DNA of 64,000 nucleotides from an uncultured virus (IMG/VR IMGVR_UViG_2061766007_000176) (Duplodnaviria > Heunggongvirae > Uroviricota > Caudoviricetes), in the IMG/VR virus record IMGVR_UViG_2061766007_000176; one strand, 5' to 3'. Both the position numbers and the translations under genes were made by a program. The notes beneath the pieces were generated by a model that had not been told where the DNA came from, did not search any database, and saw nothing but the letters and a program-made list of their open reading frames with translations. This document shows positions 5 to 64,000 of the stretch, one piece after another; the stretch's first letter is position 1; each line of letters opens with the position of its first letter.

Positions 5-772
5 ATGTCATTGCGTGAAATTGAAAATCAATTTGGCGCAACAAGAGCAACAGTAAGTAAATTTTTAGAAACAAAAGGTATTAAAACTACTAAAGGCAAT
101 CATTATAGAAAATATTTTCACGATATAGATTTTTTTGAAACTATTAATACGGAAGAAAAAGCATACTGGTTAGGATTTATGTATGCCGATGGATATATAG
201 TAAATCATGAAAACCGCNNNNNNNNNNNNNNNNNNNNNNNNNNNNNNNNNNNNNNNNNNNNNNNNNNNNNNNNNNNNNNNNNNNNNNTATTGAAAAATTT
301 AAAGCAAGTATAAAGGCGACTAATCCTATTAGATATGATGATTCTAAACAAGGACAAAGACAAGTAAAATTAGTATGTTGCTCTCAAAAAACAGTCAATG
401 ATTTAANNNNNNNNNNNNNNNNNNNNNNNNNNNNNNNNNNNNNNNNNNNNNNNNNNNNNNNNNNNNNNNNNNNNNNNNNNNNNNNNNNNNNNNNNNNNNN
501 NNNNNNNNNNNNNNNNNNNNNNNNNNNNNNNNNNNNNNNNNNNNNNNNNNNNNNNNNNATATGATATGGCAAAATGGCTTCAAGATACTTTACAAATAGG
601 AAATATATTTCCAGATAAACGTAGAGATTCAACTTGGTATTTCTCAGTAGGCGGAAATCAANNNNNNNNNNNNNNNNNNNNNNNNNNNNNNNNNNNNNNN
701 NNNNNNNNNNNNNNNNAATATAATCGTTATAAAGAATTATTAGATAAATATGGCGAAAGCCAGGGTAATTAA
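5..772 (+). CDS. LAGLIDADG-family homing endonuclease (interrupted by N-gaps), probably intron-encoded
   Basis: N-terminal HTH-like segment followed by the LAGLIDADG-type motif 'EEKAYWLGFMYADG'; fragments 5..313 and 566..772 are separated by gaps; TAA at 770-772 overlaps the next ATG. Confidence 0.75.
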
Positions 773-45925: not shown

Positions 45926-45935
45926 NNNNNNNNNN

Positions 45936-46885
45936 TTAGGAGTAGTGAATAGACCAACACCAACCTTTACATAACCCTGTAGTACGAAACTGTTATCGCC
46001 CTCGTGGTCATCCCACTCACGGAAATAAGGAGAACCTTCAAAAGCCATCTTGATAATCTTTTCCTTACCAGCTGGTAGGACATAAGCGAAAGATGGGTTG
46101 AATAATAACTTCTCATTCTTCTCATCAGTAAAGGACTGAGGCATTACAACAACTGGTACGCCCTGGAACTTGCCGATATAGCCACGTTCACGAATATCAA
46201 TCATATCCTGATCAGAAATCTTGCCACCAACCCAGCTTGGATTAACATTGCTGTAAACAATAGCATTTACCATTTCAGCTGCAAACTCAGGAGTGCAGTA
46301 GATAATTGGAGAGCCATAAGGAGCAACAGTGTTGCATAGTTTCTTCATAGCGGTAGGATTGAAAGTGTTAGCAGCGACCTTGTTACGAGCTGGACGTCCA
46401 GCGGCGTTCCAAGAAGCTAATAGACATTCCTGAACCATTTCGAATAGACGATCAACAATACCTTCCTGGATTACTGCATAAATATCAGTCATGTTCTCTA
46501 GACCATCTAAATAACGTTCGAAGTCAACATATCCAGCGCCACCAATAGCCTGAATATATAGATCGAAACGATCACGGTCGAGACGGAAGGTCTCATAGTT
46601 ACCAGATTCAGTAGCACGAGTTACAAACTGCTTGCCACGAACCTTACCACGTACAANNNNNNNNNNNNNNNNNNNNNNNNNNNNCCTGAGCGTAATTCTT
46701 AACCTCAACAAACATATCGAGAGCACTCTTTACGTTCTGAGGGAGCATTTCTTCTAGATTTTCTTCTAGTAATTCAAAAATTTCATACTTATTCTTTTCG
46801 AATACGTGACGATTGAAGTTCTTGCCATCCTTAGTCATTAGCTTTGCTAATTCATCGCGGAGAGCGGCTTCATAATCGTAATTTT
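45936..46885 (-). CDS. major capsid protein, variant B (both ends in gaps)
   Basis: Colinear with variant A, with an insertion 'SNVNPSWVGG'. Confidence 0.7.
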
Positions 46886-46895
46886 NNNNNNNNNN

Positions 46896-47368
46896 GCAAC
46901 AGATAAATCTTTCTCTAAAGCTTCCCATAGAGCAGCTTCAGTAGCAAATTCACTGTCATTATACTGTAAGCAATTGGTGGTTACAGTATCGCCTAGGCCT
47001 AGAATACCAACACGAGGATAATCCCCAGCGATCTTGCGGCCGAAGCGTTGTAGACCATAATGATTCATGTCATATTCTTTTTCAGTAGTATAAACAATAC
47101 CAATTGGGGAAGAGGTTGCAGCGGCAGGAGCATCAATTACTCCAGCGGCTTTATCAGCTACGACCCACATACCATTCTCGCATACACCGTATTTGTTCTC
47201 ACCAGGAACAAACTTTGGTCCGAGAGGAGTCTGAGAAACTACCATACCAGTCTTTGGGAATGCTACCTGGTTTAGTTCTAGGCTGGCGTATAGCTTTTCA
47301 TCGGGATCACGATGCTGAGCAACTAGATCGCCTTCGACATTAGTAATAGGAAATCTATTGTATGCCAT
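46896..47368 (-). CDS. capsid decoration/cement-like protein, variant 1 (3' end in gap)
   Basis: MAYNRFPIT...ENGMWVVADK; lies immediately upstream of the capsid gene. Confidence 0.6.
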
Positions 47369-47403
47369 AAGTTATTCCTCCTTAATTCTTGCGNNNNNNN
47401 NNN

Positions 47404-47950
47404 AAGCTAATAAGCATTCCTGTACCATGCGGAATAGCTCATCGGTGATACCTTCTTGAATGACTTCGTAAATATCGGTCATGTTCTCTAGACCATCTAG
47501 ATAACGTTCGAAGTCAACATATCCACCCATACCAATAGCTTGGATGTATAAATCAAAGCGATCATGGTCTAGACGGAAGGTCTCATAGTTACCAGATTCA
47601 GTGGCACGAGTTACAAACTGTTTACCACGAATTTTACCGCGGGTTACACGGAACTCTGGACGCTGACCCTGAGCATAATATTTAATATCAACAAACATAT
47701 CTAGAGCGCTCTTTACATTCTGTGGAAGAACTTCTTCTAGATTTTCTTCTAATAGTTCAAATACTTCATGCTTATTCTGTTCGAATACATGACGATTGAA
47801 CTCCATTACGCCGGTCTTACGATTTGGCTTACACATTAACTTAGTAAGTTCATCGCGGAGAGCGGCCTCATAATCATAATTTTCTGCTGCAAATTCAGCA
47901 GGAACGGCACGACCAAATACGCCGTTCATTAACATAGATAGCTTATTCAT
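47404..47950 (-). CDS. major capsid protein, variant C (N-terminal half)
   Basis: MNKLSMLMNGVFGRAVPAE...; homologous to variants A and B. Confidence 0.7.
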
Positions 47951-47964
47951 AAGTCGCACCTCCA

Positions 47965-48609
47965 TTATACACGAATAATCTGATACTTAACGCCGAGACC
48001 GCCGTTAGGAATCGTATAGAATTTAGTAATACGTCCGTAAATGCCCGCCTGTGGAATACCAGCAGCTTTGACGATTACAGGAACTGCCTTAGCAGAACTT
48101 GCAGTAGCGTCAGAAGCATTACCAGGAATTACGTATAGAGCATTAGCAGCAACGGATAAGTCTTTCTTTAGAGCTTCTAGTAAAGCAGCATCATTAGCGA
48201 AAACGCTGGTGCTGTACTGTAGGCAGTTAGTAGTGACGGTATCACCAACGCCTAAGATACCAACACGAGGATAATCGCCAGCAATCTTGCGGCCAAAGCG
48301 TTGTAGACCATAATGTTCACGGTCATATTCTTTTTCAGTAGTATATACAATACCAATTGGAGCGTCTGTTGCATTAGCTGGTGGATTAATCGCGCCAGCG
48401 GCCTTATCAGCAACTACCCACATACCATTCTCACATGGAGCGGCCTTGGTGAAGTCAGTTCCGAGAGGGGTCTGAGAAACTACCATACCAGTCTTTGGGA
48501 ATGCTACTTGGTTTAGTTCGAGGCTGGCGTATAGCTTTTCATCAGGATCGCGATGCTGAGCAACTAGATCGCCTTCAACATTAGTAATAGGAAATCTATT
48601 GTATGCCAT
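47965..48609 (-). CDS. capsid decoration/cement-like protein, variant 2 (complete)
   Basis: RBS aggagg; 214 aa; paralogous to 46896..47368 and 48735..49247. Confidence 0.65.
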   Translation of the reverse strand: MAYNRFPITNVEGDLVAQHRDPDEKLYASLELNQVAFPKTGMVVSQTPLGTDFTKAAPCENGMWVVADKAAGAINPPANATDAPIGIVYTTEKEYDREHYGLQRFGRKIAGDYPRVGILGVGDTVTTNCLQYSTSVFANDAALLEALKKDLSVAANALYVIPGNASDATASSAKAVPVIVKAAGIPQAGIYGRITKFYTIPNGGLGVKYQIIRV

Positions 48610-48734
48610 AAGTTATTCCTCCTTAGTTCTTGCGATATTTTTGCATAAATAACNNNNNNNNNNTTCCGCAGGAACGGCACGACCAAATACGCCGTTCATT
48701 AAAGCACGTAGATTATTCATAAGTCGCACCTCCA

Positions 48735-49247
48735 TTATAGTCTCACGATCTGATACTTAACGCCTTTGCCACCATTAGGAATGGTGTAGTACTTCACGAT
48801 CTTAGCTAAAATGCCAGAACCAGGCTTATTAGCTTCTTTGAAGATCTGAGGAACTGGGCTACCAGCTTTAATGCCAACATATAGAGGATTAGCAGCTAAA
48901 TCATTTAAAGCGGCCTCTAAAGCAGCATCATTAGCGAAGTGAGCAGTATCATATTGTAAGCAGTTAGTAGTAACGGTATCGCCTAAGCCTAGGATGCCAA
49001 CACGAGGATAATCCCCAGCGACTTTGCGGCCAAAGCGTTGTAAACCATAGTGATTCATATCATATTCTTTTTCAGTGGTATAAACAATACCAATTGGGGA
49101 AGCAGTTGCAGCAGCAGGAGCATCAATGATGCCAGCGGCCTTATCAGCAACTACCCACATACCATTCTCGCATACACCATATTTGTCGTCACCAACAACA
49201 AATTTTGGTCCGAGAGGGGTCTGAGAAACTACCATACCAGTCTTTGG
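48735..49247 (-). CDS. capsid decoration/cement-like protein, variant 3 (5' end in gap); followed by a capsid 5' fragment at 48664-48720
   Basis: PKTGMVVSQTPLG...GVKYQIVRL, then MNNLRALMNGVFGRAVPAE. Confidence 0.6.
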   Translation of the reverse strand, partial: PKTGMVVSQTPLGPKFVVGDDKYGVCENGMWVVADKAAGIIDAPAAATASPIGIVYTTEKEYDMNHYGLQRFGRKVAGDYPRVGILGLGDTVTTNCLQYDTAHFANDAALEAALNDLAANPLYVGIKAGSPVPQIFKEANKPGSGILAKIVKYYTIPNGGKGVKYQIVRL

Positions 49248-49257
49248 NNNNNNNNNN

Positions 49258-49818
49258 AGTATCATCATTCTTACTAAAGAAAGAAGATACAGAGAAACAT
49301 GGTTCGTGGTCACCGATTATACACAGCCCCATGATTTCAGCTTTAGTATAGACAAAATACTCAGTATCACCGATATTCGCCCAATCACCTTCAATTGAGT
49401 TAATATCAAGTTCCATTGATTGATTTTGTCCTACAACGAAATTGGCTTCGTTGAAATATTTAGTGAATAGCACGACAGAGAAAACCGCATAATCGCGCTC
49501 TACTCCGTCAGTATCCTTAAAAGGTTGCCATCCATCAAAATATTCAACGTAACCATATGCGCTGGCAAGTGTTGGACCAGTATGACTTGCCCAACCCTTT
49601 GATTCTGGATCAAAAAATCCGACCACAGGAGTATCGCCACGAGTTGCACTTTCAATCATCATGTTTGCAACTGGCTCTGTGATATAAGAACCATTTCTAT
49701 TACCATATTTGGTAAAGACGCCAACTTTTAATCTATTAAGACCGGATGAGCCATTGATAGGTTCGGCTGGCGACATTATAATAGCATTATCGAAATAAAT
49801 TGGAATATTTCTTTTCAT
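49258..49818 (-). CDS. prohead protease/scaffold protein (N-terminal part; truncated by gap)
   Basis: NRNGSYI, PVVG, QSMEL, GLCIIG..EPCF motifs; follows the portal gene. Confidence 0.75.
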
Positions 49819-49832
49819 AATTTTCGCCCTCC

Positions 49833-51377
49833 TTAACTTGCGCTATCAATGTTATCCTACGTTTTTTGAGAACGATCTTCATCAGCTAACGTAGGTCTAC
49901 CGCCCTTATTAGTTATGTCTTTAGACTATGACCCACTATTACTATTTTTTTCTGAAGAATTATTTTTTCCTTCAGAATTTTCATCACCTGTTTGAGTATA
50001 AGATGACATAAGTGGTATCATTTTTTCATCTAAATTTAAGAACTCATTTTCAAAATCAATAGCACTTACAAAATTACGCTGTTTTACACCTAGCGCCGCC
50101 GCCAATCTCATACGAGGATAACCAAACTGCGCCGATTGTAAATAATGTCCAATATAATCTTTTAAGTTAAATTTAGTAGTGGGAAGAATTTCAAAATCAA
50201 AACTCAATCCTGTGCGGCTAAATCTGCTATTGATTAAGAATTTAATCCAGTTCGCATAAGCATTAATGTATTCCTACATTGTGCTTTCTAATCTCTTAAT
50301 AACATAAGCTAGTGAAGAACTATTGTCAGCATTAAAGAATAATTTACTCATTCCTAAGCTATCCCAAGCATTATCGTTATATTTTTCAAGACGGTTGTTA
50401 GCTTGAGAGGCAGCAGATGTATCCTGTAAATTTTCAAGAGTAGTTTCACCAAATGTTGTTAAAACATCAACGGTATCTAGCTCTTGTAACATATTAGCTA
50501 CACCGGCGTGAATTTGCGCAACTTCATCTAATTCAAATACTAAATGTCCATCATTATCAATAGGCATTCTCTGAATTAATAATTTATATAGCTCATTTTC
50601 ATCGCGTTTTTCCTCACGCGCAATAGCATCCTTTTGCTTTGCTAAATCAATAAGAGCTGCGATTATTGGAGGAGTGGTATCTTCTGCGAAACAGAAAACC
50701 ACACCGCCCGCGTTAGCAGGAACCATAACCCAAGGATCATCTAAAGCATTTGCTTTATATAATTTCCATGCTTTCTAAATAGCCTCCGGATAATTTAGAA
50801 TAGCATAACTACGAGTTTTGTCATCATCAAATTTAGTAACAAAATAAGTAATATTAAACTCTAAAATTGGTAAATCATTAAAATCCTTAAAGCGAGTACG
50901 GCAGTAATCTAATGGTAAATCCTATACTACAACCTTATCGCCCTACTCTTGTAATACACCATAATATATACCAGATTTTAGCCATTCTTTAGTAATTCGC
51001 GCTAAAAGTGATTTTATATTAAGAGCCTCGACAAAGCTACAAGCATTATAAAATGCTTTTATAATCTATGTTTTAGAACCTTTTCCAGATTCATAAATTG
51101 GAGTTACTAGTGTATCATATAAGAAAAGATTGGATAAAAAACCAACTACATTACGATAGCGCCCATTCGTTCTATAATAGTAACGGGATAGCTCTCGAAT
51201 GGCAGAAGCTTCACCAGAACGAATAATTGTTTCAATTTCATCCACAGTGAAATCTCTATCTACTACACCATTCGATCTGCGGCCACCCCAACGAGAGATG
51301 CGTTCACGAGAGTCGATCGGTACATAATTAATCTTATACTATGCGTTTTTAAACATAGTAGCAAAATCTCTACTCAT
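49833..51377 (-). CDS. portal protein (~514 aa, TAG read through)
   Basis: Between terminase and protease; ORFs 50726 and 50207 in frame; C-terminal 'PLMSSYTQ...GGRP'. Confidence 0.8.
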
Positions 51378-51382
51378 AAAAT

Positions 51383-53170
51383 TCACCTCCTACTTTTAGG
51401 AGTGAAGAAACCAAACATATCAAGGTTCTTTTTTTTCTTCTTAAAAATTTCTTTGTCTTCATAATATTTAATACGATATAAAGCATATTCGAGCGCACTG
51501 AAACGGTCCTTCTCTATAGACTTTGAAATACGTTCAACTTTATATTTATTATCAATACCAGTGGGCTTTAACCGCAAGTTATTAAGTTCATCCATTAGAC
51601 GGGATGTCATCTCATATGGGAGTAGAAATACACGTCTATCATAAGCTGTCATTTTCTATCCCTTTTTAGTTTGCATTAACTTATCTTTTACTATACGTTC
51701 ATGCGCCAAGAAAGATGTTGAACCATTGTTTATAGAAGTGAGAAAAGCTGAATTAATAGCATCCTCATTTCCGGAACCAGCTTTAATATCATATATAATA
51801 GCATTACAACGTGGTTGAGGCTCATCTTCTTCCTTATGTAGTTCTGGCGGTAAATGATTTTCATCATTAAAAGTAAAGTAGGCTGGAAATTGTTCTCCAG
51901 TTTTAGCATCAAATGATGGAAGAACCATAGCATCCATTAATCCAATACCAGGTCCGTTACCGTCGATTACAATCTCTCGTGGATTATATAATTGAATGAG
52001 TTTTTTAAGGCGCGGTGCCTATTCTGTAATATAGTTTGCGCCATTTATAACTTCGGTATAGACCACATTTTTCCTAAAACGCTATGCCCCGGGTAATACT
52101 TTTATGACCATAATAGCTGTATTCGCGCTATATCTACCAACGTCGCATCCAATTAAGTAGAAAGCACCATTTGGTAAACTTTCACGTGCTTTACGTTCAC
52201 ACATTAGAAGTGAACGATGCTTATTAAGTCTACGAGAATCAAGCCAAGCATCGGCGCCACTACCAGTCCATATTGATAAATTTTCACGAGCAAATGAATC
52301 TTCACTAACGTTATTAGAATAACGCTGGTCTAACATTGTTTCCTTATCAATTAGCCCATAATGAAGAGGTACTTCATAGGATAGACCCCAGCAGAAATAG
52401 GCGTTCGGCCGCAAGACTGCGTTTACAGCGATCTCTATCAAACGCTGATACATATAAACAGTACGGTCAGAAGCTGTAGTAATGAAGGTTTGTGGAGAAG
52501 ATGGTTCTTCAGCATTAATAGTTCCATCTACTTCAAGACGTTTGACGTTTAGCTGAGGCCATAGAACTTCAGTATAAGCTTCTTCGCTGATTAAAGCACA
52601 CTCTTCTAAAATAGCTGCGGTGGCACGAAGACCACGAGATGTATCCTTGGAAACAACAGTAATTTGGCTACCATTCTTAAAATAAAGTTCATAATAGTTT
52701 GTACTTGACTTAACACCAGTTTTACCATCTTCTTGGCGTGTTGCTAATTCTCTTTCAAGTAAAGGCCAATGCTGAAAGAATTGCGCGAACTTATCTTTCG
52801 CAATATTAATAACCGTACCTTTTACTTCAGACGCAATCATTATTGAGGATTTTGGTAGCAGGACAGCTCGGACGAGTGCGCACAAGTAAGCTGTAAAGGA
52901 TTTTGACGTAGCACGGGTAGCTGTCCAAAAGTGATAGCGATAGCGCATACTCGCGCGCAAAGCGACTCTCTGATATGGTAATAAATGGAAATGCTACGAA
53001 TCCTCATAGGATTGAATTGAATCCAAAAATAAATCTGGATACATAATCCATAAATTTAAGTATTTCGTAAAAAGTTCTTGATTTGCGTCTAGAAATTCTC
53101 TTGTAAGGGTAACTCCCTTCTCAATTGGTATTCCATCACGCATTTCAATTTTTCCAAATTCATCATTCAT
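51383..53170 (-). CDS. terL: terminase large subunit (TAG read through)
   Basis: Four ORF fragments in one frame; ATPase 'ATRATSKS', 'SRGLRA..ILEE'; nuclease 'IGCDVGR', 'IDGNGPG', 'KDRFSAL'. Confidence 0.9.
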
Positions 53171-54119
53171 TGGTATCGCCTCCCGCTTCAAGCGCAGCGG
53201 TTAGCTCATTCTGCCCTTCATATTCAATATCAGCCATCTCGTCAAAATCTACTTTTTCATTTTCAATTTCTTCAAGGCGCTCGGTCATATTATATCTTGC
53301 CTTTTTATCTTCAACTTGTTCCGCAAAGTTACCCTCATTTAGTACTAAGCGCTTTAAGTAATTCTACATATTTTCCATTAAGAAATCTATGGAATCTTGA
53401 GGTTCATGATGCCATTTTGGATGCCAGCCTTTCTTTCCATAATATATCATTAACTCTCCAACTGACTCAAAGTCAGCCGCAGACTTTGCGTTTGTCGCAG
53501 TGAAATTGTATGTCTTTACAATATCATCCGCCTGCTTCATCATCTTGGAAACATCAGCGCCCGCGCGCAATCCTTTCTTAATACCAAGCTGTAGTTCGCA
53601 AAAATCGCGAGCTTTTTCTTGTAGAATAGGCGTAGACACATTTTGTGTTGCTACAATCTTATTATAAAAAGTATCTAACCAAAGAAGTTCTTCTGGCTTA
53701 TATGCGCCAGACCATACCTTCCTTAATTCTTTTAATTTTGCATCACCCAATGCCTTAATTTCATCATCAATTGTACCAGCTTCGCGCGCGAGTCTCCATC
53801 TCTCATTCTCATCTGCCCATTGTAATGGAGTATAATGATCATCGTATAGGACATTAAAGTATGCGGTTAGCGTATGGTCTTTATGTGTCTCATACAATTG
53901 CGTCCACTTATTGAGGTCAAATGGAAGGTCAAGCCAGCGCATTAGGCGATCAACTTCGCCCAAATTATCCTACTTAATCATTGTTTCAAGACATGGCGTA
54001 CATATATAACATTTGCCACCTGGAAAGAATTTTGAGGGTGTGTCTTGGAAAAATTCCTGCGGCTATTCGCGCTTACACTTTAAGCAACGTCGGGTCTTTT
54101 TTTCTGAGATCTCCGCCAC
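53163..54119 (-). CDS. Zn-finger protein upstream of terL (possible small terminase subunit; TAG read through)
   Basis: GTG start with RBS; CLKC...CTPC N-terminus in frame with ORF 53963; ends TGA. Confidence 0.6.
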
Positions 54120-55374
54120 TGTTAATCACTCCTCTTTTTATGCGCGTTTCCTTATCGCATTGCTTACACGTATTCGATAGACCATCTTTATGAGCATTAT
54201 TGCGGCTGAAAAATAGTGGATCTTTTGGTAACATGCGGCCGCAATGGATACATTTTTTGCGCTGGTCTTCTGGTGTATCTTGCTCCAGGCGCAGCATTCT
54301 TGCGACTTGGGCAATCTTTTTTGGCACCTCATTACTTACGATAGATACGAGGTAATTAGGTGAGTACTCTATTGCGTAGCGTGCCCTCATCTCATCCAAA
54401 ATATCCTCATACGCCATCCCCCGCTTTCTCAATTCAATTAGGAATAGGCGCAGTTCGCTAAAGCCGCATAAGCTGACATATCGGTCAAAATCCCATAGAA
54501 GGGTGCGCCCATACGTATTTAATTTTTCCTTTAAGGCATCATATAAGACGCAATAGTGGTTGAGTAGCGCGCGAACATGTTTGTAGTTTTCCCAATCAAA
54601 GTGATGCTCGCACACCATCCACTTAACCATACCATCCTCTCTTACCTCATAATCCTTAATATCTTTGGAAATGCGAGATGTATATGAATGATTTACACGG
54701 TATTCCCACTGCTCATGGGTTATCCAATAGAAGGAATCGCCCGACCAATCGTAGAATTGGGGTTTTGGGTGATCGAGGTTTTGGAAGTGTAGGGTAGGTT
54801 TTGCGCTATCCTTCAAATAATACTAATGCTTACGAATATCAATTAAGTTGTGTTTGAGCTGGTATACGCGATAGGGGTCGGTTACTAGGGTGTCACTTTC
54901 GTTGGGTGCAACCTTACCTTGCGCAATATCTAACATACGTTGCCACCTATCTATAATTTCCCATTGTTCCACCATACCTGGTACATCGCTGTCGCCGGGA
55001 TCAATCATCTCACCAGTTTTTTTGTCGTACTTCGGCTTATTGATACAGGGTTTGGGTACAGTGTACGAATCACGTTTATATGCGGAGCGCAGCTGCTGTT
55101 CATCGAATCCAGGTACCTCCATCATCTCATCCAGCGACTACACTTTATCATCTTTTGTCTTATAACTCTTATATCTCTTATCCTTGTCAATAGTTTCGTT
55201 TCTCTAAATTGAATTTTTGCCGTTTTCGTCCTTGCCGTAGAGAATGTAGGAAGCCATCTACTCAAGCTCGGTTGGGCTTGGGTCGGTAGCCATTGTATCT
55301 AAAATTTCTTGAACTGCTTTGAGGCGCTCTGTGTCTCGAACTATGGAAAAGTCCAATGAATATTTTTTTCTCAT
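54073..55374 (-). CDS. conserved phage protein with C-terminal HTH-like and Zn-finger segments (TAG read through)
   Basis: RBS aggagg; ORFs 55125 and 54816 in frame; CIHC...CKQC. Confidence 0.7.
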
Positions 55375-55401
55375 AGAATCGCCTCCTTTTTCTTTACTTA
55401 T

Positions 55402-55431
55402 ATTATAACATGAGAGGTTTAATGTTGTCAA
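55402..55431 (-). promoter_or_regulatory. sigma70-type promoter at the head of the packaging/virion block
   Basis: TTGACA-18 nt-TATAAT with extended TG. Confidence 0.75.
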
Positions 55432-55559: not shown

Positions 55560-55790
55560 TATTTCAACGGTTTCGGCCGCAGACTCCGCGAGAATATCAA
55601 ATTCTTACCGCCAGAAATGTCATTTCTGGTATGGCGCCTATTTCAAAATCAGAACGGGCGACCCTCCGCGAAAATTTCGGCGCCCGCGGGTGCCATTTTT
55701 TCTGGCACCCCCGTCAGCCTATTTCAAAATAAAAACCGCCGACCCTCCGCGAGAATCTTACCACCGCCGCGGGCGTTCTTTTTTTGATCC
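55560..55790. repeat. imperfect ~80-bp tandem repeat (2-3 units)
   Basis: cctatttcaaaat...cgaccctccgcga(a/g)aat...cgcggg near 55638 and 55718; weaker unit near 55560. Confidence 0.65.
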
Positions 55791-56153
55791 CCCATCGATG
55801 TTATTTGGAAAATTGGCCGGGCGATTAAATTATTACGAAAGTGTTACAAATTGTTACAGGTTTGTAATAGTCCGCTTTACTTTAGTACGCTAAAGTATTA
55901 AAGCGAAAAAATCTATTTACATCGATTCCGGTCAAAAATGGTCCGCCGGAGTTAGTCATGACTAACTCAGTGGGACAAAACTGGCCCGCCGAGTTAGTCA
56001 TAACTAACTTTTATCAAAGGTAATGAATAGTCCGCGAAAAATAGTTCGGTACCGAACTAGTTGGAAAGGTCAAAGTCAGTCAAAGTCAAAGTAAAGGTCA
56101 AAAAAAAAGATGTACTTTCTGGTATACCAGATTGTACATCTTCCGGCGGTTCC

Positions 56154-56603
56154 TCACGCGGTGAGGAATCCGTACCGCGCAAGGATTTTTTCATTCGTGA
56201 GTTCTGCTTGATTCAGTTTGATCTGTACGTTCTCGCCATTGATCACCGCGTCACCGGCAACGAAGAACGGAACGGAATCTTTCTGCCATTTCTCATCGGT
56301 GAACATTTCGGTAATGATCTTTTCGAACATCTCGCCCTTGTTCCAATGCGGGTCATTCAGCATTTCAGCGGAGCCGATCAGCAGAGCGTGGGGAATCAGC
56401 GCGGAGAGTTCAGCGCGGTTGGCGCGGATCCGGATCTTGCGGAAACCGCCCTTCGCGGTGCTTGCGCGATCCATCTTGCAGTAGGCGGTGATTTCTTCAA
56501 AGGTCATTCCGCACACCGCATAGAGCAGACCGGCGAAGATGAAGCCGAAGTAGTAGGTGTGGGAAGCGGAGTTCTTGTTGTAGGCGGTCAGCAGGTTCAT
56601 CAT
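56154..56603 (-). CDS. hypothetical early protein (149 aa)
   Basis: Own promoter 56635-56663, RBS gaggagg and downstream hairpin 56109-56140. Confidence 0.75.
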   Translation of the reverse strand: MMNLLTAYNKNSASHTYYFGFIFAGLLYAVCGMTFEEITAYCKMDRASTAKGGFRKIRIRANRAELSALIPHALLIGSAEMLNDPHWNKGEMFEKIITEMFTDEKWQKDSVPFFVAGDAVINGENVQIKLNQAELTNEKILARYGFLTA

Positions 56604-56885
56604 CTTGGGGTTCCTCCTCTCTCTTTCTGTAAACAGTATAGCAGATCCGCGCCGGCTTGTCAACACTTTTTTCGATTTTTCTCAACTTTTTTCAGAGGAA
56701 CTTTTGTACGTACAACTCGCGGATACTGTATACAAAGTTGTACGCATGGACGCGTACAACTTAAAGAAGGGCAGGTCCGCCGTGGGTCCCGGCGTCTTAC
56801 GTTCCTCCTCCGATCTACCATTATTATATAGGAAAGGGGTTGACTTGTCAACCCCTTTTTTTGAAAAATTTTCGCGGGCAATGGA

Positions 56886-57122
56886 TCAAAGATCCATTCC
56901 CATCTCATAGTTCCACTCAGAGAACCCTTCGAGGGTATCGCACAGTTCATCGAACAGGACTTCGGTGTCTTCGGTTTCGTAACCGAACCGCTCACCGATC
57001 CGGATGATCACTTTGTTATAGTCCTCGGAATCGAACAGTTCGTACCACGCGGTCACGTTCAGTTCGGTAGCGACTTCGTCAAAGATCTCTTCGAAAATGG
57101 ACTGATTCATCATAGCGTTCAT
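56886..57122 (-). CDS. small, very acidic protein
   Basis: Own promoter 57173-57201; D/E-rich 78 aa. Confidence 0.75.
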   Translation of the reverse strand: MNAMMNQSIFEEIFDEVATELNVTAWYELFDSEDYNKVIIRIGERFGYETEDTEVLFDELCDTLEGFSEWNYEMGMDL

Positions 57123-57480
57123 AGTTGGTTCCCTTCTGGTTTGGAGGGTTTTCCTTCCCTTTTTCTGACTATAGTATAACAGATGCCGGCGCGTTTGTCA
57201 ACACTTTTTTTCGCTTTTTCTGAAAAAATTTTTCGGCGCGGACAGCATACATATACAGACAAGTTGTACGCATCAGAGCGTACAACTTTTTCAAAATTCG
57301 CCATTGAGAGCGTCTGAGATTTTTTCGTCCGTACGGCCTCCCGAGGGATTTTTCCTCAGAGGCTTAGAATGGCAGATTTTGAAAAAGTTGTACATACAAC
57401 TGTCGCAAACGCAAAACTTTAGTGCTTTAGCGCGCTAAAGTAAGGCAGGTAAAAAGAAAAGGCGGTTTCCCGCCCTGTTT

Positions 57481-57639
57481 TTACTTGAGGGTTTCAGTGG
57501 TGGAGTAAATTCCGAGGTGGGTCTGCCGACCATACACATAACGGGGATACCAGAAGGAAACCGCATCCTTTTTCCGACCTTCGAACAGCACCTCACCGGT
57601 CTTCTCATCAATCACTTTCCAAACCTTCCAATTCTTCAT
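57481..57639 (-). CDS. small protein MKNWKVWKVIDEKTGEVLFEG... (52 aa)
   Basis: Promoter 57690-57718, RBS, TAA and terminator hairpin. Confidence 0.7.
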   Translation of the reverse strand: MKNWKVWKVIDEKTGEVLFEGRKKDAVSFWYPRYVYGRQTHLGIYSTTETLK

Positions 57640-57859
57640 CGTTTCTCCCTTTCTGGTTTGTGGGGTTTTCCTTCCCCTTCTGTGATTATAGTATAGCAGA
57701 CCGGCGCATATTTGTCAATTACAAAATTATCAACAAATTGTTAAGATTCAATGAAGTTTTTGTAACACTTTCGTAATAAATTGCGCCGGCCGGCCAGAGT
57801 CATCGCGCTTTAGTACACTAAAGCACTAAAGTGGTTTGGGCAAAAGAAAACCGGAGGAC

Positions 57860-57949
57860 TTAGTCCTCCGGTTCCTCCTCCGCGAGGAGGTCCGCCAGTT
57901 CGGCGAAGTCCTCGTCGTGAAGTTCGGGGTTCATGTACCAATCAGCCAT
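57860..57949 (-). CDS. 29-aa acidic peptide MADWYMNPELHDEDFAELADLLAEEEPED
   Basis: Promoter 57980-58008, RBS gaggagg; stop lies inside a terminator palindrome. Confidence 0.65.
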   Translation of the reverse strand: MADWYMNPELHDEDFAELADLLAEEEPED

Positions 57950-58067
57950 TCTCGTGTCCTCCTCTCTCTTTCTGTACATAGTATAGCATATGCCGGCGAG
58001 ATTGTCAACACCTTTTTATAAATTTTTTCAAAAAAATCGGCGGGATCTCTCCCGCCGTTTTTAGTGG

Positions 58068-58415
58068 TTAGGGCAGAAAGTCCATCATCTCGGTCATGCC
58101 CAGACAGGTGATGAATACCACATCCACGATCTCGTCATCTTCCTCGTGTTCGTTGCTCATGTCGCGCATGATCAGCACGTACAGGTTTCCGATGTGGGCA
58201 TCTTCTTTCTCTCCAAGGAAGTCCCGCACGTTTCCGTTCTCATCGGTCACGGAGATCACATAGAGGTCAGAGTCGCCAATCTGTTCCCAAGCGGTGACCA
58301 CGGCGGTCAGCCGATAGGTATCAGTGGTTTCGGCGGTTGCGGTTGCGATCCCACACAGAGCGATCAGCAGGGCGGTGATGATGGTGGCGATGGTGGCGAT
58401 TTTCAGAGTCTTCAT
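58068..58415 (-). CDS. small secreted or membrane-anchored protein
   Basis: MKTLK plus hydrophobic signal-like helix; promoter 58450-58478. Confidence 0.7.
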   Translation of the reverse strand: MKTLKIATIATIITALLIALCGIATATAETTDTYRLTAVVTAWEQIGDSDLYVISVTDENGNVRDFLGEKEDAHIGNLYVLIMRDMSNEHEEDDEIVDVVFITCLGMTEMMDFLP

Positions 58416-58515
58416 GTTGGGATTCCTTCCTTTCTCTCTTTCTGTAATCATTATAGCACGAGGTTACCGGTTTGTCAACAGTTTTTTGAAAATTCTTTTT
58501 AATGATTGAGAAGGT

Positions 58516-58680
58516 TTACACCTTCTCAATCTCCATAACATGGTCGGTGTTATCGGTGTAGACCCGATACAGGTCATCACCATCGGGCATATAATAGGCA
58601 TGGTTTCCGCACTGAGTCATGCCCGTACCATCCCACCAAATTTCCTCGTAGATATAAGCACCCATCATCATCTCGATCAT
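58516..58680 (-). CDS. small hypothetical protein (54 aa)
   Basis: Promoter 58714-58742; RBS. Confidence 0.65.
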   Translation of the reverse strand: MIEMMMGAYIYEEIWWDGTGMTQCGNHAYYMPDGDDLYRVYTDNTDHVMEIEKV

Positions 58681-58996
58681 CTTTCCGTACCTTCCTTTCC
58701 TCTTTCTGTGTACAGTATAGCACACCGGCGCCGGTTTGTCAATTACGAAATTCTGAACAAAATGTAACACTTTTGTAACAATTTGCGCGGGCCGGCCAGT
58801 TTTGCGCGAAAATCGCGCCACAGGCCCAATCTGGCCAGAATCACACGGCCGGCCGGCCGGTAGTCAAAAATCCGGCCCGTCTGAATGGCAATTTTCGGCA
58901 ATATGGCCGGCCTGCCGGCCCGCATACTTTAGCACGATAAAGTATTAAAGTACAGAGATATAAAAAGAAGGGCTTTCGCCCTTCCCTTCCGCAGGA

Positions 58997-59281
58997 TTAG
59001 ATATCATAAGAAGCATAGCCGAGCCGAACAGTAAAACCATCGAAGTGATAATCGAAATAGAAATCACCTTCCTGTGACAGGCACTCGGTTTCAAGCATCT
59101 CTTCGAACGCTTCGACCGCTTCCGGATGGTCATAATCCCGCATGATTTCGGACCAATCATCATCAAAACCATCGAAGTCCTGCAGGGTCACATCCATCAC
59201 TTTGTCCTCTTCATCATACCACATAGAAGCATCCGCTCCGAGAGCCTTAACCATCGCCATCATCATTTCCAGAGTCATCAT
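58997..59281 (-). CDS. small, very acidic protein
   Basis: Promoter 59333-59361; terminator 58968-58985. Confidence 0.75.
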   Translation of the reverse strand: MMTLEMMMAMVKALGADASMWYDEEDKVMDVTLQDFDGFDDDWSEIMRDYDHPEAVEAFEEMLETECLSQEGDFYFDYHFDGFTVRLGYASYDI

Positions 59282-59411
59282 TTTCTTTCCCTTTCTGGTG
59301 TTTGGGATTTTCCTTTCCCTTTCTACGGTCTTAGTATATCATAGGTTTGCCGGTTTGTCAACACTTTTTGAAAACTTTTTCAAAAAATTTTTTTGAAGGT
59401 TGGAAGGCTTT

Positions 59412-59540
59412 TCAGCCTTCCACCTCTTCCACCTTCACCACATCATAACCCATCAGTACCACATTGGCAATGCCCTTTTCATCGGTAACCACCACTTCGG
59501 TCTTGTTATTGTAGATGTTTCTCACAGTGTACTTCTTCAT
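59412..59540 (-). CDS. small hypothetical protein (42 aa)
   Basis: Promoter 59589-59617; RBS; hairpin at the stop. Confidence 0.65.
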   Translation of the reverse strand: MKKYTVRNIYNNKTEVVVTDEKGIANVVLMGYDVVKVEEVEG

Positions 59541-59665
59541 TTTCTTTCTTTCCTTTCCTTTAGGGCTCTTGTTCCTTTCCACGCTCTTATTATAGCATAG
59601 CCGGTTTAGTTTGTCAACACTTTTTGAAAACTTTTTTGAAAAATTTTTTACCGGTGGTCTGGGCA

Positions 59666-59872
59666 TCAGATGATGCCCAGAGCCTTCGCCTGTTCATTAA
59701 CCGCTTTCCTCTGTTCGAAGATTTCGGCGAGTTCCCGCTTGGTTACGGAATAGTCATCGCACATATTCGCACAAAACTCGTTTCCGTCGAGGATTTCCAG
59801 AGCCTTTTCATAATCCTCTTTGGTCTTAATGACCCACTCTCTACCACGCTTTACGATATCCATCCTTGGCAC
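59666..59872 (-). CDS. small hypothetical protein
   Basis: RBS, -10 box upstream. Confidence 0.65.
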   Translation of the reverse strand: MPRMDIVKRGREWVIKTKEDYEKALEILDGNEFCANMCDDYSVTKRELAEIFEQRKAVNEQAKALGII

Positions 59873-60016
59873 CTTCCTTTCCTCTTTCTGATTATATTAT
59901 ACACAATCCGCACCGGAATGGAATAGCAAAAATGGGAAAATTTTCAACCAAAATTCACATCAAATTTTTTTCAAAAAAGTGTTGACATTCTGCCTATAGT
60001 ATGCTATACTGATAAT

Positions 60017-60268
60017 GTCGAAAGGGGCAATGCCCCAGAGAACGGAACCGCCCCGAAGGCGGGTGACTGCGGAGAACGAGAGTCCGATGAGGCGAGCAAG
60101 ACACGAATCCCGCCAACAGAAGGAAACGGAGTCGGGGAGAGAAAACTCCCGTAGAACCTAAATCCGTACAACGGGCAGACGATAACTCGCCCAGGGTGGT
60201 AACCTCTCCCACCACTATCGGTGGGTAGTGAATAGCCAAAACGGAGTCCGATGCGACCCCGTTTCTTT
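60017..60268 (+). ncRNA. putative structured ncRNA, copy 1 (unknown family)
   Basis: Promoter TTGACA-17-TATACT at 59982-60010, no RBS-led ORF, many hairpins, 3' hairpin with T-run; shares ordered motifs with 62552..62812. Confidence 0.6.
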
Positions 60269-60502
60269 ATACCCCAATAGTTCGGTACCGAACTATCGCG
60301 GGGCGCAGCAGGCCGGCCAGTGCCATATAAAATTCCGCCCTACAGGCCCGAACTGGCCCGAATGAATGGCCGGCCGGTCGATTGAATCAAAACCGGCCCG
60401 TTAGAATGGCAAATTTTTAAACAGGCCGGCCCGGCGACGAGTTAGTCATGACTAACTGGTTACATGAGAAAAAGGTTACATCTTGCGATGTAACCCTTCG
60501 GC

Positions 60503-60658
60503 TTACTTGGCGAGGATGTAACCCTCGCCTTTCAGTTCCTTCACCCTCGCGTTGAGGGCGGTCTTGGTCTTGTAATACTCGTTTTTCATCATCATTCCGT
60601 TATAGCGGGCGGTCAGATAGAATCCTTTGGGCATGGTCACGATGTTCAGAGTTTTCAT
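60503..60658 (-). CDS. small basic protein (51 aa)
   Basis: Promoter 60702-60730; RBS; terminator 60473-60496. Confidence 0.7.
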   Translation of the reverse strand: MKTLNIVTMPKGFYLTARYNGMMMKNEYYKTKTALNARVKELKGEGYILAK

Positions 60659-60735
60659 TTTCTTTTACTTCCTTTCTTTCTTTCCGTCTTTCGACATTGT
60701 TATTGTAGCATACTTTCGGCGGTTTGTCAACACCC

Positions 60736-60921
60736 TTACCAAATATTTTCGGCGAGGGCGATGGTCATCATGGCTTCAGCAACCGCATGGCGGTCAGCCC
60801 ACTGGGCGAGGGGTATATCCATCGTCTTTTCGGATTTGACGATATTTCCGTTCTCGGTGGTATAGTTCCAAATCTCGGCGGTCTTGGTCTTGGTGTTAAA
60901 CTCTACTTTGCTGAACTTCAT
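60736..60921 (-). CDS. small hypothetical protein (61 aa)
   Basis: Promoter 60964-60992; RBS. Confidence 0.7.
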   Translation of the reverse strand: MKFSKVEFNTKTKTAEIWNYTTENGNIVKSEKTMDIPLAQWADRHAVAEAMMTIALAENIW

Positions 60922-61013
60922 TGTCTTTCCTTCCTTTCTTGTGGTTTCCCTTTCCACGGTCTTATTATAGCACACTTTATTCCGGTTGTCAACACCCAAG
61001 ATTTCGGATTTTC

Positions 61014-61181
61014 TCATTTAGAGAAAATCCGAATGGACTCGGAGCGATAAGGCTTAGTGGAGATAACCCTCTTGACTTCCACGTATTTGTACTGGGAGGC
61101 GAGAGCCTGACCAACACACAGGGCGGACAGTTTATCGGAGGTGGTCCACAGGGTTTTGGTGGCGGTAGTGACTTCGTACAT
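61014..61181 (-). CDS. small hypothetical protein (55 aa)
   Basis: Promoter 61229-61257; RBS. Confidence 0.6.
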   Translation of the reverse strand: MYEVTTATKTLWTTSDKLSALCVGQALASQYKYVEVKRVISTKPYRSESIRIFSK

Positions 61182-61388
61182 TCTTCTTACTTCCTTTCCT
61201 TGAGGGGTTATCCCCTCTCTGTGATTATATGATAGCATACCGGAATGGATTTGTCAATTACAAAAGTGTAAACTATTTGTTAAGATTGTATGAAGTTTCT
61301 GTAATACTTTCGTAACATTTAGTCAGGCCGGCCCGGTAAAATAGTTCGGTACCTAACTATTGCCCATAAAAAAAAGAAGGCGAGACCC

Positions 61389-61592
61389 TTACAGGTCTTC
61401 GCCCCACTCGTCTTCATCGGCGAACACGTCGTAGAAGAAGTAAGCGGTTTTGGCTTCATGATCGACCTCTTCGAGAACGAAAGCATCTTCCATCGCATCG
61501 AGAACATCTTCCCGGTCTTCCATCACCCGGTCGCCGTAGGTGGTTCCGCAGGTCACGGTGTATCCGGCTTCGAACATTTCCATCATAGTCAT
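61389..61592 (-). CDS. small, very acidic protein
   Basis: Promoter 61641-61669; RBS. Confidence 0.7.
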   Translation of the reverse strand: MTMMEMFEAGYTVTCGTTYGDRVMEDREDVLDAMEDAFVLEEVDHEAKTAYFFYDVFADEDEWGEDL

Positions 61593-61748
61593 CGTCTTTC
61601 TTTCCTTTCTTCGAGTGGGTTTCTCCCTCTCTGTGACTATAATATACCATACCGGCGAGTATTTGTCAAGCGTTTTTTTTCAAAAAAAATAAAAAACTTT
61701 TTTCAAAAAAGGGGTTGACATATAGGGCAGGATATGATAATATATAGT

Positions 61749-61862
61749 CACGGAAGGGAAGGAAGTAAGCACCCTCAAATGCCACCCGCGAAAGCGGTTA
61801 CGGGGAGTGGGAACCAAAAAAAATGCTACTAGAGGGGTCAGGTAAGACCGCCCTCTTTTTTA
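61749..61862 (+). ncRNA. putative small RNA (~110 nt)
   Basis: Promoter 61715-61743; CCGC-GAAA-GCGG hairpin; terminator AGAGGG..CCCTCT plus T-run; no ORF. Confidence 0.5.
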
Positions 61863-62074
61863 TACGGCAATAATAGTTCGGTACCTAACTATTCGCGCGG
61901 GCCGGCCATCTAAAAACTTCGATCTACAGGCCCGAACTGGCCATCTTACTGGCCGGCCGGTCGAATGAAAAAATTAGGGCCGGTCTGAGAGGCAAATTAC
62001 GGGCCAGGATTTTATCCTGGCCTTATTGGCCGGCCCGCGCTTTAGTGCGCTAAAGTACTAAAGTATGATCGCAT

Positions 62075-62270
62075 AAAAGAAAGCCATCCTTTACGGGATG
62101 GCACATCCGCACTTGAGGGACGTTTTCTTCAGCAGTTCGTGTCAGCGGTGCGGTTGCGATTCACTCGGTGGTGATTCGGACAGGGCCCTCCTCACCTCTG
62201 AGGGTCTTACGTCGGCTACTTGTGCCTGTCGCCCCTCCGAGCGGTCTTGGGGGTTTTCCCCCCTTTGACA
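62075..62270 (-). ncRNA. putative small RNA (~190 nt)
   Basis: Promoter TTGACA-17-TATAAT at 62304-62276; terminator GCCATCC-cgtaaa-GGATGGC plus T-run; no RBS-led ORF. Confidence 0.5.
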
Positions 62271-62382
62271 CTAACATTATAACCCATTATAGATTATTTG
62301 TCAACCCCTTTTTTAAAAAAATTAAAAAAACTTTTTTGAAAAAACTGTTGACAACCGATCCGGTTTGTGGTATTATAATCCT

Positions 62383-62495
62383 GCGAGAGGGAGAGAAACC
62401 CCAACTCTCCCGAGGGACGCCCACCGCAGACAGGGGATCCAAGGGGCGCAAGCCTGGCGGTGGGAGTTCTCCCGAGAGCAAAGCGCCCAGACTTT
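62383..62495 (+). ncRNA. putative small RNA or leader (~110 nt)
   Basis: Promoter 62348-62376; CCCACCGC/GCGGTGGG stem; no ORF start. Confidence 0.4.
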
Positions 62496-62551
62496 GAAAA
62501 AAAGTTTGGATGAACGCTTGACAGATCCACCGGAAGGTGCTATAATAAGAC

Positions 62552-62812
62552 CATCGAAAGGGGATGATTCCAAAGGGACGGGTGAGCGAGAGCGAGCAGG
62601 TCGCGGTGGCTCGTAATCGCACAAATTGAAGCGACTGGGCGCGCCCACCGAGGCATGGGCGGTACTAAACCAGAGTCAGACTCTGGCGAGCGTACCAAGT
62701 CCCACGAGGGAAGGGAGAGAGACCCGGAAATCGTGGGACGGGGTGGTAACCCCTCCAGACCCGAGGAAATGCGGGGAGCAATAGCCAAAACGGGCGCAAG
62801 TGCGCCCATTTT
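62552..62812 (+). ncRNA. putative structured ncRNA, copy 2 (homolog of 60017..60268)
   Basis: Promoter TTGACA-17-TATAAT at 62518-62546; stems CCAGAGTC/GACTCTGG and GTCCCACGA/TCGTGGGAC; terminator GGGCGCA/TGCGCCC plus T-run. Confidence 0.6.
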
Positions 62813-63044
62813 CCACATCCGGGCCTGCGCGGGCCGGCTATATGTCATTCAAAATTCGCCATTACAGGCCCGATCTGGCCAATTCAACTGGCCGGCCGGC
62901 CACACTTAATTCTGGCCCGTTAGAATGTGAATTACAGGCCAGAATTCAACCAGGCATCGGCCAGATAATAGGCCAGAATTATTAAGGCCGGCCACAGGCC
63001 AGGCCCGCTTTAATACGCTAAAGTATTAAAGTAGATAGATATTA

Positions 63045-63198
63045 AATATGCCCGCCCAATCGGACGGGTCTTACCGGTGCCACCCTCGGGCGACCTACCC
63101 TCAGTGGCTTGGGCGCTTGGTCTCGCCCGTTGAGTCCGCTTCGCGCCTGCCCGCGGACTCGGGGCTTGGGTTCCCACCGGAATCACCTCCCTTCGATG
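63045..63198 (-). ncRNA. putative structured small RNA (~150 nt)
   Basis: Promoter 63232-63204; closing stem CCGGTG/CACCGG with internal stems GAGTCCGC/GCGGACTC and GCCAC/GTGGC. Confidence 0.45.
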
Positions 63199-63436
63199 GT
63201 TAAAGTATAGCACAGTCGCGCCGGTTTGTCAACAGTTTTTTTGAATTTTTTCAAAAAAAATTACGATCAAAATTTGCCTCTCCAGGCCCAAACTGGCCCG
63301 TCGGCATCGACCGGCCGGCCGTATGGTTCTGAAAATCGGCCTGTAGAGGCAAATTCCAACTGGCCGGCCTGCCGCCGAGTTAGTCTCGTCTAACTCTAAG
63401 GATGTAAAATTTGGTCTGACCAGATTTTACATTGTC

Positions 63437-63874
63437 TTATTTGGTCAGACCCTTGAGAACCTTCACGATGTCGGCGGGTTCGTAAGCGTTCTCACCCCAA
63501 GCCTTGCGGTTTCCTTCTTCATCATCGAACAGGATGTATCCGTTGGTAGCGGTTTTCTTATTCGTTCCGTAGGGAACAACCTTGATTTCGTTCCACTTGA
63601 CGGCGGGAAGGTGCTTGGCGAGCCAAGCGACCTTGGCTTTGGCGACCGCCTTGTGATAGGCGGGATTGTCAACCTTGGCGGTCCAAGTGATGACATTCAC
63701 GGTATAGCCGTTCTTCTGAACCTTGTTCAGCAGGCGGGCGATGTGGGCGAGATTTCCGATACCCTTAGCGATTTCGTAGGGGCGGGTCTCGCCGTTGCGG
63801 ATGGCGATCAGCCAATCAGCGACTCCGTAGAGGTCAGCGATTGTGCCATCCATGTCGAACCAGATACCCTTCAT
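63437..63874 (-). CDS. HAD-superfamily phosphatase (5'-nucleotidase-like)
   Basis: FDMDGTIAD motif I, ITW, K, LFDDE motif IV. Confidence 0.85.
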   Translation of the reverse strand: MKGIWFDMDGTIADLYGVADWLIAIRNGETRPYEIAKGIGNLAHIARLLNKVQKNGYTVNVITWTAKVDNPAYHKAVAKAKVAWLAKHLPAVKWNEIKVVPYGTNKKTATNGYILFDDEEGNRKAWGENAYEPADIVKVLKGLTK

Positions 63875-64000
63875 TCCTTAACTCCCCCTTTCTGATTATA
63901 TTATATACTATTGACACCGGATTACAATTGATTATTTGGGAAAATTTCATACCAGATTAACCATCAGGCACACTGTGCTTCAAGCCAATTAATCATTTTA

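Follow-up and report, generated by a model that had tools for sequence, protein, structure and literature searches.

The stretch analysed here, 64,000 nt of an uncultured virus (IMG/VR record IMGVR_UViG_2061766007_000176; its full length is called the window below), is part of a phage that reads TAG as a sense codon and belongs to the crAss-like phages, which are among the most abundant gut viruses. When TAG is opened as sense, the open reading frames (ORFs) of at least 150 codons increase from 35 (9,655 aa in total) to 51 (21,280 aa), and minus-strand frames of 4,738 and 2,081 codons appear. Near one end of the window, within a dense block of promoter cassettes at 55.4–63.3 kb, lie two transcription units, RNA A and RNA B, which a first-pass annotation had described as two homologous, promoter-driven structured RNAs of unknown family. 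Both are on the plus strand, opposite to the small minus-strand genes around them, and each is followed by a copy of a repeat that we term M:

59982–60010, plus strand: promoter of RNA A, TTGACA-17-TATACT (11/12 consensus positions, TG present), behind an A/T-rich UP-like tract (a shared A/T tract, family D3)
60017–60268, plus strand: RNA A, about 252 nt, non-coding, 58% GC, 30% G, 13% U
60192–60268, plus strand: 3′ domain of A, with hairpin GGGU-GGUA-ACCU (UGGUAA loop), hairpin CCCACC/GGUGGG, AAUAGCCAAAAC and a terminator hairpin at about 60239–60264
60269–60460: palindrome AATAGTTCGGTACCGAACTAT and M copy A, between the terminator of A and that of a convergent 51-aa gene
62518–62546, plus strand: promoter of RNA B, TTGACA-17-TATAAT (12/12, TG present)
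62553–62812, plus strand: RNA B, about 260 nt, non-coding, 60% GC, 36% G, 13% U
62739–62812, plus strand: 3′ domain of B, with hairpin GGGGU-GGUA-ACCCC, hairpin CCCG/CGGG, AAUAGCCAAAAC and terminator GGGCGC-AAGU-GCGCCC plus U run
62813–63040: M copy B, between the terminators of B and of RNA F, a minus-strand cassette

The 5′ starts were placed from the −10 boxes and the 3′ ends from a hairpin followed by a U run; both RNAs end in this way in their predicted folds, and a simple terminator scan listed neither hairpin. On the consensus promoters, the terminator-like 3′ hairpins, the orientation and the lack of an ORF led by a ribosome-binding site in the 252 and 260 nt, the first-pass annotation was right. 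A conserved peptide behind the similarity of A and B was not found either. The start-to-start distance between the two copies is 2,547 nt for a 16-mer (family D17) and 2,549 nt for a 14-mer (family D12) in the 3′ domain, and because of this difference of 2 nt the motifs cannot share one conserved frame, which excludes a shared peptide. Furthermore, a tblastx search with both RNAs in about 0.5 Mb of DNA from related phages gave no similarity in any frame, and we therefore also rejected the idea that A or B is the pseudogene of an early protein. A and B are thus most likely promoter-driven, terminator-ended, untranslated units.

They also belong to no catalogued RNA family. Rfam 15 gave no match in the whole window at the gathering score, and at E≤10 the region 59900–63100, as well as A and B each alone, gave only noise in the form of terminator look-alikes and miRNA models. 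A blastn search ('distant' setting) with 59950–63050 against 50,697 phage records had no match. The motif pair GGTGGTAACC..ATAGCCAAAACG was absent from IMG/VR, had four matches in JGI metagenomes that are all unrelated by reading and mostly coding-looking, and had three matches in GTDB genomes, all of them chance; the eight matches of the 16-mer GGGTGGTAACCYCTCC in IMG/VR had neither a promoter, nor the second motif, nor a phage context. Related loci were collected through a neighbouring 452-aa protein (26 loci) and a 145-aa protein (3 loci), together with the rest of four close records, and are designated by L numbers. In these loci and the closest records no A- or B-like RNA was detected by blastn, by nhmmer (queries A, B and a 3′-domain profile) or by regular expressions, the last run over 526,647 bases; a GGGTGGTAAGA match in L042 turned out to be the end of a coding gene.

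The units do persist across independent samples. The sequencing runs that contain the stretch are bovine gut metagenomes, and bovine-gut contigs of other studies carry near-identical copies of A (2 differences in 289 bases and 2 in 246) and of B (6 in 334). A diverged contig covering cassette D, directly upstream of B, and B itself (run X6, about 88% identical) differs at 31 positions and has 8 gaps over 336 bases, and in the contigs of four other runs 62622 C>G is the one difference inside A or B among those listed. Within 59985–63221, contigs assembled from other samples link one cassette to another at shared promoter/UP sequence (for example 59987>62544, 59987>61698 and 60966>61698). Joints at these positions mean that cassettes are shuffled at their frames, and they indicate that such shuffling is frequent in the block.

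The relationship between A and B is narrower than had been proposed. Aligned over their whole length, the two RNAs give a z of 5.2 (0/200 shuffles as good), and this signal comes from the ends: the 3′ domains (A176–252 against B187–260) reach z 9.2, which none of 500 shuffles matched, the first 30 nt reach z 3.6 (1/500), and the cores (A12–175 against B12–186) only z 1.1, with 64 of 500 shuffles as good. Two other core registers, that of the first-pass annotation (A21–90 against B12–60) and that of the best local alignment (A21–130 against B77–175), give no more than z 2.6 (13/500) and z 2.8 (3/500), so that a remote or repeated homology of the cores is possible but borderline. With A or B as the nhmmer query, each recovers only itself. 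In the 3′ domain, the 16-mer at 60194/62741 is shared with one mismatch and the 14-mer at 60231/62780 exactly; the 16-mer has just two copies in the window at up to three mismatches, compared with 0.15 expected, and neither motif has extra copies or antisense partners in the window above chance. At the 5′ end, TCGAAAGG(GG) forms part of the initial transcribed sequence in many early transcripts, mRNAs among them (for instance that of promoter 60730, minus strand), and A and B have the 5′ word (A/G)UCGAAAGG in common with other early transcripts such as this mRNA and several non-coding RNAs of related phages; this word is a property of the cassette frame. The motifs CGGGTGA, CGAGAG, GCGAGCA and GGGAGAGA fall in the GA-rich core, where A and B have no significant similarity. 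From the series of motifs said to be shared in the same order, the 16-mer and the 14-mer are real and lie in the clearly related tail, whereas TCGAAAGG is a general early word and the internal motifs lie in the non-significant core.

Predicted structure does not clearly extend this relationship. The folding z values are −1.55 for A and −3.95 for B (about −3.5 to −4), compared with a mean of −1.24 (range −3.7 to +1.3) for 13 neighbouring early mRNAs; A thus folds no better than these mRNAs. A covariance model of the core of B (62635–62758, 124 nt, 39 pairs of the minimum-energy fold of B) scores B at 158.7 bits but misses A at E≤10, even when the filters are switched off. On the A–B sequence alignment RNAalifold found 30 unchanged, 4 one-sided and 0 compensatory pairs, and in the 3′ domain 9 pairs with 1 compensatory change; two sequences are too few for a verdict on a shared structure. 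A and B contain no tandem repeats at a score of at least 30. Antitoxin RNAs of the ToxI type consist of tandem repeats of about 34–36 nt, and repeats like those of this type III toxin–antitoxin RNA were rejected on this ground.

What continues beyond the RNAs is the M repeat, a GGCC-rich element of 150–230 bp that stands behind the terminators of A, of B and of a third cassette, C. Its landmarks are GCGCGGGCCGGCC, TACAGGCCCGAnCTGGCC, TGGCCGGCCGG and GGCCCGTTAGAATG, and copy B adds three ATTACAGGCCAGAATT-like sites (family D10). An M profile finds five copies in the window, all within 5 kb (58782–58898, 60300–60438, 61892–62039, 62820–62969 and 63266–63358), and relatives carry copies at L004:3610–3718 and L006:2907–3034. 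The last 4 kb hold 45 of the 116 GGCC sites of the window and 12 of its 17 GGCCGGCC sites. Copies A and B of M align with z 10.3 and 121/147 identical positions (82%), and the RNA 3′ domains with 54/69 (78%); the shared, transcribed 3′ domain is no better conserved than the adjacent untranscribed repeat. The A–B homology is thus one contiguous block of 3′ domain, terminator and M with roughly even similarity, and clear relatedness is limited to the last 77 nt or so and the DNA repeat behind them. Since tail and M are similarly conserved, the two exact motifs need not reflect selection on RNA, and the conservation of the tail may reflect a duplicated DNA block instead. With cores that are not significantly similar, a B-core model that misses A, an ordinary fold of A and this evenly conserved tail, the data do not support a single structured family in which the loops are conserved and the helices exchangeable, attractive as that reading of two sequences is.

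As a separate observation, M looks like an array of protein-binding sites, possibly those of an origin, of packaging or of a regulator; it carries GGCCGGCC and repeated ATTACAGGCCAGAATT-like sites. Three perfect or near-perfect palindromes, TAGTTCGGTACCGAACTA, AGTTAGTCATGACTAACT and CTTTAGTGCGCTAAAG(TACTAAAG), recur at cassette borders. Their sites fall into three groups (56042–56059, 60277–60296, 61342–61361 and 61874–61893; 55957–55975, 55991–56009 and 60439–60457; 55879–55902, 62040–62065 and 63008–63033), and such border palindromes are present in L004, L006, L008 and L010 as well; operators, terminators or hairpin signals are candidates for their role.

A and B belong to a set of at least six non-coding cassettes, with A, C, D and B on the plus strand and E and F on the minus strand, and this cluster with its M repeats is more interesting than the A–B pair:

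61715–61862, plus strand: promoter and RNA C (about 111 nt); the terminator loop carries GGUAAGACC; a relative lies at promoter 2632 (minus strand) of L006
61863–62060: M copy C, after RNA C
62304–62083, minus strand: promoter and RNA E (about 188 nt, 60% GC, non-coding); promoter 62304–62276 (12/12), terminator 62102–62083; the 3′ part is related to L008
62348–62510, plus strand: promoter and RNA D (about 122 nt, 61% GC); no clear terminator of its own, continuing into the promoter of B; partial relative at L008:3575–3712
63232–63045, minus strand: promoter and RNA F (about 154 nt, 67% GC, non-coding); promoter 63232–63204, terminator 63068–63051; 5′ leader shared with B, word GCCC-AGGGUGG-NACC shared with A

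A D–B read-through RNA is possible. The folding z values of E and F are −3.46 and −2.34, so that B, E and F fold better than shuffles, and C, at +0.5, does not. F has an ortholog at L006:2708–2875; of the 42 predicted pairs, both partners have changed in 6 and a single partner in 2, and no pair is lost. These compensatory changes mean that at least one RNA of the cassette class is under selection for structure; they are the best evidence of this kind for the class, and they concern F, not A or B. The attempt to use L004 8262–8505 and L010 4162–4345 as a further covariation pair failed on too poor an alignment, with a consensus energy of −6 kcal/mol. In composition, A to F are alike, with 30–38% G, 10–16% U and 51–67% GC, as compared with averages of 45% GC and 23% T in the first 255 nt of 288 coding cassettes. 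The G-rich, U-poor make-up together with the compensatory changes in F favours functional RNA.

In the related phages, a crude rule classes 42 of 330 promoter cassettes as non-coding, and 15 of these are GC-rich and U-poor; Rfam matched no cassette in eight loci of the four closest records, where two tRNAs were the only matches. The word UAAGACC occurs in 7 of the 15 GC-rich, U-poor non-coding cassettes, at 3.07/kb compared with 0.084/kb in coding starts and 0.057/kb in all loci, so that (G)UAAGACC is more than 35-fold enriched, a count that overstates independence because some of the seven cassettes are orthologous to each other; the cassettes come from the window, L002, L004, L006, L008 and L010. 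The word is often unpaired directly 5′ of a helix and sometimes occurs twice in one RNA, which hints that it may be a common binding site for some partner. A further short non-coding unit extends from 56851 to about 56740 on the minus strand, and a short 'GGACCCACGGCGG' type recurs in L004, L006, L008 and L010.

The explanation that we tentatively prefer, at somewhat less than even odds, takes A and B for stable early RNAs that act in trans and combine a common 3′ handle with bodies that can be swapped. Host RNA polymerase would transcribe the cassettes soon after infection from their near-consensus sigma-70/sigma-A-type promoters, and transcription would end at the intrinsic terminators, giving G-rich, U-poor, untranslated RNAs of about 250 nt. 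We infer from their sequences that these RNAs are made and are stable: a G-rich, U-poor and structured make-up should resist Rho and AU-directed RNases. The putative handle would comprise the UGGUAA hairpin, the second hairpin, the single-stranded AAUAGCCAAAAC and the terminator, joined to 5′ bodies that are unrelated or barely related; it could stabilise the RNAs, supply their 3′ ends and offer a protein or an RNA end the same site to bind in both, and the swappable bodies might act in trans as decoys or binders of host or phage factors. If the 3′ handle and UAAGACC mark sites for a common partner, the cassettes would amount to an RNA-based toolkit for host takeover with fast-swapping bodies.

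Several results weigh against this explanation. Besides the dissimilar cores, the ordinary fold of A, the failure of the B-core model to report A, the poor fold of C and the even conservation of tail and M, A and B lack UAAGACC and have GGUAACC in its place. L004, the closest relative, has orthologs of the genes on either side of A, but no more than a short G-rich unit of about 45 nt in the slot between them. Outside this phage lineage, the collections searched yielded no homolog of either RNA, no RNA sequencing run was listed among the runs that contain the stretch, and Pfam and PHROGs searches recognised no RNA-binding protein among 13 early-region proteins and two larger neighbours.

The main competing explanation, which we consider unlikely but take seriously, is that only the frame matters. 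Cassette recombination would have kept the promoter with its leader and the duplicated block of tail, terminator and M, with unrelated filler in between; the strong promoter–terminator unit would act as a polymerase sink, an insulator or a supercoiling barrier that guards a protein-binding M, and the RNA sequence would be irrelevant. This would account for cores that are not significantly alike next to an equally conserved tail and M, for the switching of cassettes at shared promoter sequences in contigs of other samples, and for the nearly empty slot of A in L004. It also fits with the repeated ATTACAGGCCAGAATT-like sites and GGCCGGCC of M, and with the position of M between convergent terminators at all three plus-strand units that precede it, namely between A and the 51-aa gene, C and E, and B and F. 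However, the M copies at 58782–58898 and 63266–63358 lie between co-directional genes with no non-coding RNA adjoining, and filler is expected neither to be G-rich and U-poor in a strand-specific manner, nor to fold better than shuffles as B, E and F do, nor to keep its helices by compensatory change as F does.

Rather improbable, in our view, is the reading that the cassettes are selfish or in decay and now serve no function, having been left behind with their promoters and terminators as early genes turned over. The lack of homologs beyond the lineage, the ordinary fold of A and the strongly varying cassette content of close relatives would agree with this, but such leftovers should not have perfect or near-perfect promoters or a composition unlike that of coding cassettes and of the rest of the genome, and no trace of protein similarity is found in any frame. 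Moreover, the runs of 2024–2025 from other studies carry A and B almost unaltered in comparison with runs of 2011–2015, a possible source of the stretch, and the compensatory changes in F do not suggest decay.

The first-pass annotation had also raised the speculation that the UGGUAA loop pairs with the 3′-CCA of tRNA. In two articles on T-boxes, the T-box element is described as a 7-nt bulge, UGGN plus ACC, directly after helix A1, in which UGGN pairs with the 3′-NCCA of the tRNA (PMC7583486, PMC7778990); the bulge sits between helices A1 and A2, with UGGN abutting A1 (PMC7583486). Applied to A and B, the loop UGGU would pair with tRNA 3′-NCCA, the internal GCCA of AAUAGCCAAAAC would compete for the same UGGU, and the RNA would sense or sponge tRNA, perhaps a suppressor tRNA, or gate read-through of the terminator. 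GGG-UGGU-AACC, which both RNAs carry, and GGGUGGCACC, which F shares with its L006 ortholog, do resemble the T-box element, in the centroid fold of A the GGU of the loop pairs with the GCC of AAUAGCC, and A and B share with T-box leaders (RF00230) a promoter, an untranslated RNA of about 250 nt and an intrinsic terminator. Canonical membership can nevertheless be rejected. Even at E≤10, the T-box model matches neither A nor B when each is searched alone, nor the region 59900–63100; the element GGG-UGGUAACC has 8 nt instead of 7, one extra base, and is predicted as a hairpin loop and not as a bulge; and by reading no 3′ strand for helix A1 follows the next hairpin, so that the A1/A2 arrangement fails. 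The purine flanks RRRxG...AA (Stem III) are absent, the terminators fold independently about 40 nt downstream of the motif and do not compete with it, which leaves no antiterminator/terminator switch, and in place of a regulated co-directional gene each is followed by M and then by a gene or RNA of opposite orientation. That the 3′ handle of A and B, with GGGUGGCACC as its variant in F, is a stripped-down module for tRNA acceptor ends, of an architecture unrelated to T-boxes, we regard as very unlikely. The UGGU:GCCA pairing comprises 4 bp, is invariant and thus without covariation, and is absent from the predicted fold of B; ARAGORN finds no tRNA gene in the window; and the likeness of a conserved 11-mer to one famous motif may well be chance. 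If it were true, a phage that reads TAG as sense could in this way sense or sequester tRNA, be it its own suppressor tRNA or a host tRNA under attack.

The weakest alternative, small-protein genes, is hardly credible: A does contain a leaderless frame of 48 codons (ATG 60015) and B one of 84 codons (62655–62909), stops are rare in U-poor sequence, and AUGUCG starts several cassettes. However, the 5′ end of B lacks an ATG, a mere 2 nt separate GAGG from the ATG of its 84-codon frame, which continues past the terminator into M, the AUGUCG frames of relatives stop after 10–48 codons with products unrelated by reading, the 3′ motifs stand in different frames in A and B, and tblastx finds no similarity.

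If the preferred reading of stable early RNAs is right, the closest counterpart may be found in the crAss-like phage phi14:2. The phi14:2 report describes two long non-coding RNAs at the g004–g005 and g005–g006 junctions, abundant early on and with no known function, and sigma-70-like promoters that serve the host RNA polymerase (bioRxiv 10.1101/2020.03.07.982082). The cassettes resemble these RNAs in their intergenic position in a crAss-like phage and in having their own host-type promoters, and they differ in being at least six short units, each with its own promoter and terminator; the likeness is one of description. In phi14:2, the one cultured case studied, the most abundant early transcripts are non-coding and unexplained, and the window of this recoded rumen phage presents many genes of this kind close together and with clear borders, in which each cassette has its own host-type promoter and terminator and can therefore be cloned and tested singly.

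Two further systems are worth comparing. The PeSLs of T4-like phages are early-gene cassettes framed by a promoter and a stem-loop, and they carry protein genes. The small early units described here likewise have repeated promoter and hairpin frames at which cassettes exchange, but several of these cassettes are non-coding, GC-rich and U-poor, and the GGCC-rich M is part of the frame. The pRNA of phage phi29 serves a packaging motor without a classical terminase, and its relatives keep the structure with little sequence. Like this and other early structured RNAs of phages, the cassettes would yield a structured RNA of about 170–250 nt from a strong early host-type promoter; unlike phi29, however, this phage has a large terminase, and no pRNA-like fold or family match was found.

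The terminase gene and a portal-sized gene lie upstream of the early block:

49833–51386: portal-sized protein, named solely from a reading of its translation
51383–53191: large terminase, named in the same way

The GC content is 25–41% up to 54 kb and 44–52% at 54–64 kb. With the pattern TTGACA-16..18-TAnnnT, 20 of the 21 sites in the window fall inside the early block, and a scan for consensus promoters in 56000–64000 gives 27 promoter-like sites, compared with 8.1 ± 3.2 in shuffles. The majority of the 20 block promoters are directed leftwards into tiny genes, which have GA-rich leaders and strong Shine–Dalgarno sequences; among the 13 early-region proteins, an NT5C nucleotidase is the sole product named by Pfam or PHROGs. 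The 452-aa protein that served to collect related loci (54073–55431, minus strand) contains four in-frame TAG codons, matches PHROG 5767 'sigma factor' (E 2.6e-14) and has a zinc-ribbon-like C-terminal tail (CxxC...CxxC); it may be a late sigma-like factor of the phage's own. Adjoining the promoter of its gene, at 55640–55790 on the plus strand, there are two tandem units of about 100 bp (CTATTTCAAAAT...GACCCTCCGCGA..., then a hairpin and a T run), whose sequence is kept in L004 and L006; they may represent small transcripts made from another promoter type.

ARAGORN finds no tmRNA gene in the window either. Genes for tRNA (Lys-UUU, Asn-GUU) are present in the fetched early-region loci of relatives, at L015:623–699, L017:3710–3786, L040:3820–3892 and L042:3258–3330, and that of L015 sits after a promoter of the same kind as the early-block promoters. 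Finally, at 44500–49320 on the minus strand, two gene types (…FVTRATESGNYETFRLDRDRFDLYIQAIG… and MAYNRFPITNVEGDLVAQHRDPDEK…) each occur three times consecutively, with short N-masked runs at the junctions, and these triplets are either tandem paralogs of the capsid region or strain variants collapsed in the assembly.

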